A stretch of 64,000 bases of DNA from a virus. Taxonomy: Duplodnaviria; Heunggongvirae; Uroviricota; Caudoviricetes. Shown here one piece after another: positions 20,451 through 22,704 of this stretch. How positions within the stretch are numbered: the first letter of the stretch is position 1; the number at the start of each line of letters is the position of its first letter. Location: the IMG/VR virus record IMGVR_UViG_3300045988_149282, positions 33,636 to 97,635 of that record; one strand, 5' to 3'. The notes beneath the pieces were generated by a model. The model did no database searches, was not told the origin of the DNA, and saw only the letters and a program-made list of their open reading frames with translations. The translations under genes were made by a program, and so were the position numbers.

Positions 20451-21228
20451 AAACATCATGATAAGTATTTACTTACTTATCTTTTATGTATAAGATGACT
20501 TTGTTTTCGTTGAGACGCGACTGTTTGAACTTAAATACAAGTGCAAACGAAGAAGTCTATCTGGCAGTAGCCTAATAAGCCAAACACCAGCGAGGTCAGT
20601 TTCCAGCCTCGTTACCGAAATGGGACACACTGAGCGAGTGTGATTGCAGAACGCAGGAGGGAACATTCATGTTCCCTCCGATGAAGTAACAGAATGGGCG
20701 GTTGGTATATTTTCAACTCCATATGACTCCCGGATTCTTAGCCTCTGACCGCCCATCCTGTTACGTCATTTTGTTCAATTATGTCGTTTATACTGGGTTA
20801 AAAAGCGGCGACGTAGCCCGGCTGGTATGGTTAGCCAGCACACAACGTTGAGGCCATTACATTTTTATCAATTCTAAGGTTCTATTCACAGAGATACCGG
20901 CGAGCGTTGATATGTAACATGTTGGGCAAACATTCAATCGGAGTAGTGGCCTCAACGTTGTGAAGACAGGATTGTTGTGTAGGTTTAACCACTGTTGCCA
21001 TTGGTGCCTGTTTTCACAACAAATGATTCCATACATCACATTGTATAAATTACAAAGTAGGTGCTGTCCTCAGAAACATCATCTACTTAAAGATTTTGCC
21101 TTCTACTATTGAGCGAAGTCGAAAGCGTCTGGCACTAACGAAAAGTGCAAGTAGCGGTGCGTTTCCTGGCAGAAACTAAACCGTCGCGATTGGCACTGTT
21201 GAGTAATAAATACTGGCAGTGCTGAATT

Positions 21229-21303
21229 GATGGTGTAGCTCAGCGGTAGAGCAGTTGGCTGTTAACCAACTGGTCGGTGGTTCGAATCCACCCACCATCG
21301 CCA
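21229..21303 (+). tRNA. tRNA-Asn (anticodon GTT)
   Basis: Perfect 7-bp acceptor stem gatggtg/caccatc, D arm, anticodon loop ctGTTaa, T-loop ggttcgaatcc, genomically encoded CCA. Confidence 0.8.
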
Positions 21304-21308
21304 ATTTA

Positions 21309-21395
21309 GGGGAGTTAGTCCGTAGAGGTAGCGGTGTAGACTGTAAATCTACTGTCATGGCGACTCGGGTGGTTCGACTCCATCACTCCCCACCA
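21309..21395 (+). tRNA. tRNA-Tyr (anticodon GTA), long variable arm
   Basis: Acceptor ggggagt/actcccc, anticodon stem-loop gtagaCTGTAAAtctac, long variable arm typical of tRNA-Tyr, T-loop ttcgact, CCA. Confidence 0.75.
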
Positions 21396-21399
21396 AATT

Positions 21400-21475
21400 G
21401 CCGGTTTAGCTCAGTTGGTAGAGCGCCTGCCTTGTAAGCAGGATGTCAGCGGTTCGAGTCCGTTAACCGGCACCA
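21400..21475 (+). tRNA. tRNA-Thr (anticodon TGT)
   Basis: Acceptor gccggtt/aaccggc, D arm tagctcagttggtagagc, anticodon loop ctTGTaa, T-loop ttcgagt, CCA. Confidence 0.75.
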
Positions 21476-21769
21476 ACATAATATTGAGAACATTGGCGTA
21501 ACGGGTTCATATCCCAATTTATGAATATAATGTTGCGTTGCAGCGTGACAACCAGTGTTCTCAACATTGTGGTGAATGCACAGGCTGATGTGCGACGTAG
21601 AAGCAAGCGGATGAACTGCCTGAAGGCCGCTAACGTAGGCAATGCCGGAGATCAGCACCGGCCATCACAATTTGGCTCTCTTGCAACAGCATAACGCTGA
21701 AATACGTCCAACCTGGTGCGGTCTGATCACCCGCCGTTAGCTCCACGAAACGGAGCACACAACACAATT

Positions 21770-21856
21770 GGAGAGTAGGGAGCATGGTGCTCAAGCGGTC
21801 TTGAAAACCGTCCCATTGTGCAAACGATGATGGTTCGATTCCATTACTCTCCGCCA
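21770..21856 (+). tRNA. tRNA-Ser (anticodon TGA), long variable arm
   Basis: Acceptor ggagagt/actctcc, anticodon stem-loop cggtCTTGAAAaccg, long variable arm, T-loop ggttcgattcc, CCA. Confidence 0.6.
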
Positions 21857-22010
21857 GACACAGCGTTGAGCGGTTTGGCCTTTTAATCAACCAGATTAAG
21901 ACTCCGCTAACATAAACCAGACCGCTCAACGCTGTGATAGACAATTACGGCAGACGTTCTTAACCATAGCTTGCTAACATCCTAGCAACACTTTTTTCAG
22001 CGCAAAATTC

Positions 22011-22036
22011 AAAGGGGCTTCGGCCCCTTTTTTGAT
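22011..22036 (+). terminator. rho-independent terminator after tRNA cluster
   Basis: aggggcttcggcccct hairpin followed by TTTTTTG; degenerate second copy at 22915-22943. Confidence 0.65.
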
Positions 22037-22149
22037 TTGTTGACACTTAGTTATATTCACGTATCGTTTTATCGCTTTGATCCGAGGCAGCGTTAGACTG
22101 CCTTCATGTTCCTGATTAGATCGCAGCAGTTAAACATGGAGACAAATTA

Positions 22150-22704
22150 ATGAAGAAGTGCCATCTCAATATTTTCGCATCTCTAATAATTGCGTTAACA
22201 CTAACAGGGTGTAACGAATCTGAAATAGATGAATTAACGTTAATAGGCAAAGATAAAAGTGAACTTGAACAAAATTATAAAGCCCAATTCAAGAAGCTAA
22301 CACAAAATGTTGAAGTGTTTATTCTTCAAGATAAAAATAGTCCGACTGAAAAAGAACCGCATACGAATGGCAACCTGATCGACGGAAAAGTCGAAATGTC
22401 ATTAACCAGTAATGTTGGTAAGTATACATTCATCCAGATAAGTGAAATGCTGACAAAGGAGTACGGAAAACCCGTTGCTACAAAAGATCGTGTTTTTAAC
22501 AGAGAAGCAGTATCTGGCATGGACTGTATTGAAACTAAAACTTGTGGAGCTGGTAAATATTATGAAATCTTTCGAGGGAAGGATAGATTGATTATGGTGT
22601 CAAACGGTGCCGGTCTTTTACACGAAAAGGAAGGTGTAACACTACTCACCATCACCGATAAACAATTTAAATTTTCTCGTTTAGAAGAAGATAAAATAAA
22701 ATAA
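22150..22704 (+). CDS. lipoprotein of unknown function (AT-rich moron; superinfection-exclusion candidate)
   Basis: 184 aa; signal peptide with lipobox LTLTGC; GGAGA RBS; markedly AT-rich relative to flanks. Confidence 0.55.
   Translation: MKKCHLNIFASLIIALTLTGCNESEIDELTLIGKDKSELEQNYKAQFKKLTQNVEVFILQDKNSPTEKEPHTNGNLIDGKVEMSLTSNVGKYTFIQISEMLTKEYGKPVATKDRVFNREAVSGMDCIETKTCGAGKYYEIFRGKDRLIMVSNGAGLLHEKEGVTLLTITDKQFKFSRLEEDKIK

Follow-up and report, generated by a model that had tools for sequence, protein, structure and literature searches.

Repeated hairpin and D2 RNA modules in the tRNA region of an SSU5-like phage-plasmid, with relatives in P1 and lambda

The non-coding region around the four tRNA genes of the window (the whole stretch of 64,000 nucleotides analysed here, positions 33,636 to 97,635 of IMG/VR virus record IMGVR_UViG_3300045988_149282) contains repeated units, each made of a long hairpin, which we term H, and usually a second folded domain, D2. 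Nucleotide matches and gene content identify the window as an SSU5-like phage-plasmid. The H elements are conserved, strand-specific RNA structures, arranged as repeated H+D2 units in the orientation of the tRNAs and bounded by a single terminator. The first-pass annotation of this DNA had taken the inverted repeats for separate oddities of one locus; they are instead copies of one family, which reaches as far as P1 and lambda. Their scope is thus wider than that first reading supposed: they represent an unannotated, widespread phage RNA module.

A hairpin family with a conserved stem base

Four long inverted repeats, I1 to I4, are paralogues of the single hairpin family H and share its stem base. 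The base of the 5' arm reads (A)CACAAC, an optional A and G(G/U)U(A/G)AG, and that of the 3' arm CU(U/C)(A/U)(C/A)C-GUUGUG; the stem is 17-22 bp long and carries an apical insert of about 8 to 80 nt. Beyond the base the arms diverge yet remain complementary, as in GGCCAUUAC/GUAGUGGCC, GCGGUUUGG/CCAGACCGC and AACAUUGG/CCAGUGUU. The window copies have arms of 20-23 nt and all lie on the + strand. When the four repeats were folded as RNA, none of 200 dinucleotide shuffles was as stable as any of them. The repeats named in the first-pass annotation are all present, displaced by about 8 nt for I2 and for a small hairpin discussed below and by about 1 nt for the others; two repeats, I4 and I6, had been overlooked.

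H hairpin 1 (I1; atgggcggt...gaccgcccat; 20681-20769; z -5.5) pairs arms of 22 nt at 20681-20702 and 20748-20769 that are 91% complementary, with the base GUAACAG.../...CUGUUAC, and has orthologues with G.U variants in SSU5, Klebsiella pJN2-26 and IMG/VR contigs. H hairpin 2 (I2; cacaacgttgaggccat...; 20841-20962) has a 20-bp stem and an 82-nt insert; its 20-nt arms (20841-20860 and 20943-20962) are 95% complementary, and it folds at -47.8 kcal/mol (z -5.9). Its distal stem covaries, the pair already quoted for the window being replaced by GGUCACUG/CAGUGGCC in SSU5 and by GACCACUGG/CCAGUGGUC in pJN2-26. H hairpin 3 (I4; 21474-21574; z -4.4) begins at the CCA end of tRNA-Thr and pairs arms of 23 nt (21474-21496 and 21552-21574; 83% complementary); it is about 82-84% identical to a module of the P1 ban operon (L005 2833-2924), and its insert holds a T-arm-like sequence, GGGUUCAUAUCCC, at 21503-21515. 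H hairpin 4 (I3; cacagcgttgagcggt...; 21859-21936; z -9.9) starts 2 nt past the CCA of tRNA-Ser, with arms of 20 nt (21859-21878 and 21917-21936; 95% complementary). Its stem base, CACAGCG/CGCUGUG, is compensatory with respect to CACAACG/CGUUGUG; in its orthologues the insert differs and AAGACUCCGC is kept.

A scan of related loci yielded about 45 distinct H members in SSU5-like elements, P1, P7, D6 and Ro157c2YLVW. The arms of 27 phage-plasmid members, joined by an artificial GAAA loop, form an ungapped alignment (A2) in which 84% of the cells are paired, an underestimate in that bulged-A members fall out of register, and both-sided changes occur in 19 of the 20 pairs. The covariation score of A2 is 0.573; shuffling lowers it to 0.228, with none of 500 shuffles as high, and sliding the partners leaves 0.18 at most. 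Further, cognate arms fold with a mean energy of -24.6 kcal/mol, as compared with -15.9 kcal/mol for arms drawn from different members. The stems of the 39 distinct arm pairs hold 16-21 Watson-Crick and 0-5 wobble pairs. G.U pairs number 73 on the tRNA-sense strand and 34 on the other, the sense strand is the more stable one in 28 of these 39 pairs, and U.G is the most frequent pair at two fixed stem positions of A2. In the copies checked for direction (lambda, L142, P1 and D6), the bulged A always lies on the 5' arm of the sense strand.

A covariance model built from A2, and so from phage-plasmid copies only, was used to search more widely (R1). In the 64-kb window it recovers at E < 0.01 only I3 (45.0 bits, E 9e-11), I4 (41.5 bits, E 1e-9) and I1 (40.4 bits, E 2e-9), its default filters missing I2; on the minus strand these scores fall by 11-13 bits or the match is lost. 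Across 18 loci from SSU5-like elements, P1, P7, D6 and IMG/VR contigs, R1 finds 49 distinct sense-strand copies. The H stems are real and, within the window, specific to this region. Dispersed repeats such as miniature inverted-repeat transposable elements or repetitive extragenic palindromes do not fit this distribution, as R1 copies occur only within 20683-21938 of the window and in one orientation. A 7-nt direct repeat does flank one indel; recombination between H bases explains it equally well.

The D2 domain

H is usually followed by D2, and most H 3' arms run directly into GUGGUGAAUGC... The domain begins within the 3' arm itself (GUUGUGGUGAAU...) and closes by pairing with a downstream CAYCACAA. 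In the window, D2-alpha spans 104 nt behind H hairpin 3 (21567-21670). It comprises a closing helix (UUGUGGUG/CAUCACAA), a 5' hairpin GCAC-AGGCUGAU-GUGC (21578-21593), a variable middle and a 3' hairpin GCCGG-AGAUCAGCA-CCGGC (21644-21662); the loops of the two hairpins are mutually complementary (GCUGAU/AUCAGC) and can form a loop-loop helix. A short D2-like domain, I6 (20957-21020), follows H hairpin 2 and has GUUGUG in common with its 3' arm. Its closing helix, GUUGUGAAGACAGG/CCUGUUUUCACAAC (14-nt arms at 20957-20970 and 21007-21020, 93% complementary), is exchanged for GUUGUGGUCACGG/CCGUGGCCACAAC in pJN2-26, a compensatory change.

We aligned 21 distinct D2 homologues with their 5' and 3' parts spliced by an A6 linker (A4); the regular expression that collected them constrained the loops and the closing helix in part, and placed no constraint on the hairpin stems or the covarying loop position. 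In this alignment 96% of the cells are paired, none of 500 shuffles reaches the covariation score, and slid partners are 25-53% paired. Both-sided changes occur in 8 pairs spread across all four helices, including a G-C to A-U change in the loop-loop helix. The first-pass annotation had offered additional structured RNAs as one reading of the repeats and had proposed covariance analysis across related genomes. The repeats are present in relatives, the distal H stems and the D2 helices covary through compensatory changes, and wobble pairs are biased to the tRNA-sense strand, all of which bears that reading out.

Distribution in phages, plasmids and prophages

Behind tRNA-Thr, the window sequence has matches of about 82% identity in 555 plasmids, most of them P1-like. 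In P1 itself the modules occupy 700 nt behind tRNA-Thr in the C1-controlled ban operon, a stretch whose only annotation consists of the antisense ORFs (open reading frames) plp and upl. These two (NC_005856 69472-70041; L005 2575-3144), the first described as a 'putative lipoprotein', run antisense over three H modules and two D2 domains; in P7 no ORFs are annotated in the homologous stretch. Neither plp nor upl is likely to be a real gene. An annotated 'dicF-like region' with a strong terminator at its end occupies P1 68791-68892 (L005 1894-1995), between Pban and the tRNA/H array; the Rfam DicF model is absent from the matches at E up to 1 in the P1 locus. In the P1/D6-like E. coli plasmid NZ_LR890273 (L130), tRNAs Arg, Tyr, Thr, Ser and Ile are interleaved with H at 2505-3533 and 3986-4561, and a gene of the Thoeris anti-defence Tad2 family lies just 3' of the array.

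H begins next to structured 3' ends. In the window tRNA-Thr and tRNA-Ser, the P1 tRNA-Thr and the Klebsiella-type tRNA-Asn, H begins 0-2 nt past the CCA; elsewhere it begins directly behind a small GC hairpin or just behind a terminator. In lambdoid prophages and in lambda, it starts 6-9 nt past a tR'-type terminator on the sense strand of the Q-to-S interval.

Many lambdoid prophages carry H+D2 between Q and the holin gene; in one of them Q, a tR'-like terminator, H, D2 and the holin gene follow in that order, all on the sense strand. In IMG/VR at least 94 distinct variants, mostly on prophage contigs of 20-50 kb, match a pattern that describes the bulged subtype (CAACAGGWAAG, 36-66 nt, CTTWYCGTTG). 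An earlier pattern for viral contigs, TTGAG...CTCAAYGYTGTG, was too weak and returned mostly chance matches, of which only about 10 both-strand loci were real. The prophage units vary little in the stem and at the start of D2; their inserts, of 35-55 nt, fall into many discrete types, each conserved across contigs. Rfam gives no match on the lambdoid prophage unit. Species-representative genomes with the pattern include many Enterobacterales (Serratia, Klebsiella, Pectobacterium, Pantoea, Rahnella, Kluyvera, Citrobacter, Erwinia and Enterobacter), in a genome-collection scan whose 112 matches compare with about 70 expected by chance.

A lambda-length match of 72 nt also appeared on low-coverage contigs in several GTDB representative assemblies from unrelated taxa, for example Shewanella canadensis (NODE_20, 48,542 bp), Oceanobacillus profundus, Neobacillus notoginsengisoli and Psychrobacter cibarius. 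Contig L310 reads as the lambda Q-to-S region, and from match length and coverage only we infer that the other contigs from unrelated taxa are lambda contamination as well. It was this contamination of assemblies that led to lambda's own H copy. The hairpin lies at 44785-44864 of NC_001416, 6-9 nt past the U tract of tR', and scores 33.2 bits (E 8e-9) with R1. Behind it a D2-like domain is closed by GUUGUGCUG/CAGCACAAC, about 330 nt upstream of S; together the two span 44785-44979, between tR' and S (L364 986-1180). Near the lambda hairpin RefSeq annotates only orf-64 (44621-44815); this ORF overlaps both the 6S RNA and the opening bases of H.

At least 1039 of the 5426 complete E. coli genomes carry the H/D2 junction of the most frequent subtype, unannotated in every match listed. 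About a fifth of E. coli genomes thus carry the family on the count of this junction alone. The cryptic prophages of E. coli K-12 contain a single weak H-like hairpin, in Qin (22.8 bits, E 2e-4). It lies between cspB and essQ at NC_000913 1641164-1641225 (L250 5165-5226, minus strand) and ends ...CCAUUGUGGU; the K-12 record has no annotated non-coding RNA there.

Other features of the non-coding region

The region lies downstream of genes for a DnaB-like helicase, a primase and an ATP-dependent DNA ligase, and 1699 nt separate the ORF end at 20450 from the ATG at 22150. The first-pass view of an ORF-free region stands: the ORF list for 20451-22149 contains no credible ORF, only short, mostly antisense ones that overlap the tRNAs, the longest being 104 aa with a TTG start, antisense to tRNA-Ser. 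Over 20461-22150, Escherichia phages CMS-2020a and Cyrano are 94.8-99.2% identical in the matched parts (74-87% of the query), an E. coli plasmid aligns to 20461-22050 from end to end at 98.4% identity, and Salmonella phage SSU5 shares about 81% identity with the initial 513 nt.

At the 5' end, a 22-nt palindrome, GATAAGTATTTACTTACTTATC (20460-20481), lies just 3' of the upstream ORF and is kept in SSU5 and pJN2-26. A promoter scan called no site at this palindrome; it may be an operator or the promoter region of the non-coding operon. The leader that follows (20500-20655, + strand) is identical in nearly every column among the window, SSU5 and pJN2-26, an invariance too high for a covariation test. 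It may be a further conserved RNA, and it bears a weak similarity to the P1 ban leader (35/46 nt, E 0.018). Across these E. coli, Salmonella and Klebsiella elements, the palindrome and the 155-nt leader exceed the rest of the non-coding region in conservation.

Several smaller hairpins occur on the + strand. The small hairpin mentioned above, GGAGGGAACAU/AUGUUCCCUCC (20656-20679), is a perfect helix of 11 bp whose stability was equalled by 1 of 200 shuffles (z -3.1); in SSU5 it has other letters and still pairs (GGATAGGGCATG...CATGCCCTATTC), as does its counterpart in pJN2-26. A conserved GC hairpin, GCUGG-UAUGGUUA-GCCAGC (20821-20839), stands directly 5' of the CACAAC of H hairpin 2, and analogous hairpins precede other CACAAC motifs, at 21740-21756 and in P1. 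The one at 21740-21756, GCUCC-ACGAAAC-GGAGC, is followed by ACACAACACAAUU and forms the leader of tRNA-Ser; it recurs in P1, 5' of the third H module. The 3' tail (21937-22035, + strand), kept in Cyrano and CMS-2020a, ends in the intrinsic terminator AAAGGGGCUUCGGCCCCUUUUUU (22011-22033) and is the only part of the region laid out like the 3' end of a terminator-ended small RNA (sRNA). In the terminator scan this was the only strong + strand site, and no T run followed any H stem. Likewise, no U tract or terminator lies behind D2-alpha; only the last unit ends in a terminator.

The four tRNAs named at first reading are exactly those that ARAGORN calls, all on the + strand: tRNA-Asn(GUU) at 21229-21303 (Rfam tRNA model, 75.5 bits), tRNA-Tyr(GUA) at 21309-21395 (41.6 bits), tRNA-Thr(UGU) at 21400-21475 (74.9 bits) and tRNA-Ser(UGA) at 21770-21856. 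The last, with its acceptor stem of 8 bp and compact D arm, combines a serine anticodon with a fold like that of selenocysteine tRNA (allo-tRNA-like). The Rfam tRNA-Sec model gives it 44.8 bits (gathering score 47), and it has no reported match to the general tRNA model. The identical tRNA-Ser type is found in D6, P7, Klebsiella phage-plasmids and CMS-2020a, and the D6 record remarks that tRNAscan-SE left its amino acid uncalled.

Interpretation

We favour, with a probability of roughly 0.5, the reading that the repeats are RNA-level structural modules on the tRNA-sense strand that act in cis as punctuation of a polycistronic tRNA/sRNA transcript, by a mechanism that we infer. The region from about 20460 to the terminator at 22033 would form one non-coding operon of the SSU5-like phage-plasmid. 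Its H helices of about 20 bp would be accepted by RNase III, and cleavage there would free the D2 RNAs from the tRNAs, whose CCA ends lie 0-2 nt from H. Such compact folding would further guard neighbouring tRNAs against misfolding and leave Rho and exonucleases without single-stranded entry, and the products would retain stable structured ends. Small RNAs of the STnc100/PasD kind may remain from the D2 cores and from the 3' tail with its terminator. The dimer valley of RNase III takes about 22 bp of double-stranded RNA (PMC6212723), and the H stems provide a continuous helix of the substrate length of about 20-22 bp. A role as processing signals, one of the options listed in the first-pass annotation, is plausible.

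Several observations weigh against this reading. RNase III needs no conserved sequence, and cleavage thus leaves unexplained why the H base is kept almost unchanged between paralogues and from lambda and P1 to SSU5-like elements. The model also ignores the discrete, conserved insert types that sit atop H; such types suggest that the inserts have a function of their own, and together with the conserved base they leave room for a protein partner or a trans-acting role. Some paralogues, such as the P1 copy at 2833-2924, are more stable on the antisense strand. One copy of D6 and a plasmid has a loop of 8 nt only, so that the stem alone can suffice, which fits a protein-binding or a processing site and identifies neither. 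Finally, the members of the alignments were picked by stem stability or by regular expressions, and many are closely related, which inflates the pairing statistics.

The main rival reading, in our view unlikely, is that the H+D2 units are scaffolds for trans-acting sRNAs or decoys, with the variable apical insert or a single-stranded seed as the active part; a base-pairing sRNA, an anti-sRNA sponge and a decoy for a host RNA-binding or defence protein are examples. The near-constant prophage stem with its many discrete types of 35-55-nt insert speaks for this possibility, as do the plan of D2 ('GGUGAAU + hairpin ... hairpin + closing strand'), which is that of STnc100 and PasD cores, the D-arm- and T-arm-like hairpins in some inserts (AGGGUUCGAAUCCCU), and the terminator with U tail that ends the window's last unit. 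The internal units, however, have neither terminator nor U tail, one copy is nearly free of insert, and Ro157c2YLVW has lost the T-arm-like part of one insert. Further, no targets were identified, and the window D2 fails the STnc100 model entirely.

Another possibility, to which we give little weight, is that CACAAC...GUUGUG acts mainly at the DNA level, as short homology linkers for the exchange of tRNA and non-coding cassettes, the hairpin being a by-product. Relatives do differ by whole units with break points at the CACAAY motif. Cyrano lacks window positions 21483-21754 (272 nt), exactly between ACAUAAU and ACACAAU, so that its tRNA-Thr is joined to ACACAAUU-tRNA-Ser, and CMS-2020a variants carry another H+D2 unit in place of the module behind tRNA-Thr. 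Consistent with such traffic, the interior of the lambda D2 reappears as an H insert in D6 and P7, and the lambdoid units occupy the well-known insertion hot spot behind tR', where other phages carry tRNAs or stx. Linkers, however, need identity rather than complementarity, whereas the distal stems diverge and still pair, with both-sided changes at nearly every position of A2. The strand bias of the wobble pairs and the covarying D2 loop-loop helix make sense only for RNA, and the bulged A keeps to the sense-strand 5' arm in every copy checked. A linker role alone is thus insufficient, as it leaves the compensatory changes unaccounted for; given that presence/absence differences break exactly at the conserved CACAAY, such a role may exist alongside the RNA role as a secondary property.

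The GUUGUG of each unit has two possible partners, the upstream CACAAC of the H base or the downstream one of the D2 closing helix, and a unit can therefore refold after transcription. This raises the improbable alternative that the X-X'-X arrangement (CACAAC / GUUGUG / CACAAC) is a conformational switch or attenuator of downstream read-through or expression, acting on S in lambda, tciA/ban in P1 and the tRNAs in the window. The two pairings exclude each other, and the three segments of the I3 unit have changed in concert (CACAGCG / CGCUGUG / CAGCG). In lambda the minimum-energy fold closes D2 and the centroid fold closes H, and units do stand in leaders directly behind terminators. Against a switch, H and D2 both lack a following U tract and are thus not intrinsic terminators; an operon may hold up to four copies; no ligand or protein partner is evident; and most window copies precede tRNAs or nothing translatable.

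That the repeats are degenerate or cryptic tRNA genes, as the first-pass annotation had considered, or chance palindromes is very improbable: apart from the position of the elements within a tRNA cluster and the T-arm-like sequence inside H hairpin 3, nothing tRNA-like is found in most inserts, the four tRNAs are all that ARAGORN and the Rfam tRNA models return, and no partial tRNA match overlaps an inverted repeat at E up to 10. The shuffles exclude chance, as does the conservation of the elements from lambda and P1 to SSU5-like phages. The wider Rfam scan that had been proposed at first reading matched the tRNAs and left the repeats without a family: in the window region, at gathering thresholds and at E up to 10, it reported only tRNAs, the tRNA-Sec model included.

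A broader reading, which we offer as speculation of low probability, is that H+D2 constitutes an unrecognised, very widespread class of phage RNA, a scaffold that heads key transcripts (those of the lambda late and P1 ban operons and of SSU5-type tRNA operons) and whose exchangeable inserts determine the specificity of a trans-acting function. The inserts might then be decoys or sponges against host RNA-binding, RNA-cleaving or defence factors, or guide-like elements, and their diversity would reflect an arms race and not neutral drift. If the reading favoured above is correct, several of the most thoroughly studied phages (lambda, P1 and Stx-type prophages) and the clinically common SSU5- and P1-like phage-plasmids share a conserved module that no database annotates, at places of consequence: past tR' ahead of the lysis genes, within the C1-controlled ban operon and amid phage tRNAs. 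It would then account for long 'empty' stretches and for ORFs that are probably spurious, P1 plp and upl among them. STnc100 and PasD would be linked into a larger structural superfamily, and the module would provide a mutable element for the study of polycistronic tRNA/sRNA processing in phages.

Comparison with known RNAs

Some candidate likenesses were discarded. A Y RNA-like element (YrlA, RF02553) was rejected, as the window has no YrlA match and the ten neighbouring proteins no TROVE domain. The resemblance of an H 3' arm, UGCUCUUU/UGCUCUUA, to the boxA of rrn operons and lambda nut sites is not general: the window copies read GCCUCAAC, CGCUCAAC and UUCUCAAC. Antiterminator RNAs of the put type were rejected, as the units lie downstream and not upstream of terminators, and H is no intrinsic terminator, there being no U tract behind its stems. 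No family matches H in Rfam scans of the window, the P1-type loci and the lambdoid unit, and nothing relevant was found in the literature on non-coding RNA of the P1 ban operon, pHCM2 and SSU5.

The stems that RNase III cleaves in the stalks of rRNA operons and in the inter-cistronic R sites of phage T7 are near-perfect helices of about 20 bp. H resembles them as a helix of that length between functional RNAs of a polycistronic transcript and, like the T7 R sites, is repeated as a paralogous family within one phage. Unlike such stems, H has a base conserved far past the needs of recognition, exchangeable inserts and a coupling to D2.

The species 1 and 2 RNAs of T4, stable RNAs of its tRNA cluster, and the tRNA-spacer-derived sRNA 3'ETS-leuZ are structured non-tRNA RNAs that are co-transcribed with tRNAs and released by processing. 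We liken H+D2 to them by setting only, with no claim of similarity in sequence or structure. Unlike them, H+D2 also occurs without any tRNA, in lambda and most lambdoid prophages. Indeed, the untranslated lambda late leader, from tR' to S, contains the same H and D2-like unit, and differs in having a single unit and no tRNA.

Another parallel concerns D2. PasD (EcOnc13) and STnc100 are abundant prophage sRNAs of E. coli and Salmonella, and PasD was found bound to Hfq by sequencing of ligated interacting RNAs (RIL-seq) (PMC8550237; bioRxiv 10.64898/2026.05.13.724894); that the two have a common ancestor has already been argued in the 2026 preprint (10.64898/2026.05.13.724894). PasD1 of enteropathogenic E. 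coli lies at NC_011601 1060260-1060432 (coordinates from the supplement of PMC8550237). The core plan of both sRNAs runs from GCAUGGUGAAUCC through a hairpin, a middle and a GC hairpin to the closing strand, followed by seed and terminator. D2 resembles the 5' core of STnc100 (RF02076) and PasD in its closing helix (G)YGGUG.../...CAYC(R)C, the AAU, a 5' hairpin, a variable middle and a 3' GC hairpin. By inspection against the Rfam consensus and PasD1, the 3' GC hairpin abuts the closing strand in all of them. Further, D2, STnc100 and PasD are all phage-encoded and lie in non-coding stretches near Q, TerB-like genes or tRNAs.

The relationship has clear limits. The terminal D2 domains of P1, P7, D6 and Ro157c2YLVW match positions 31-147 of STnc100 at 33-43 bits, below the gathering score of 47, and neither window positions 20400-22200, at E up to 10, nor the lambdoid H+D2 unit matches that model. 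The canonical STnc100 of 933W lies downstream of stxB and scores 207.7 bits, and both it and PasD1 lack a preceding H hairpin. By eye, STnc100 shows no counterpart to the loop-loop helix of the main D2 type. Given that the window copy fails the STnc100 model and the P1-type matches stay below threshold, D2 is best described as a distant structural relative of the STnc100/PasD core and not as a member. For the long H hairpins we found no described counterpart, and the D2 domain behind them is distant kin of known prophage sRNAs.

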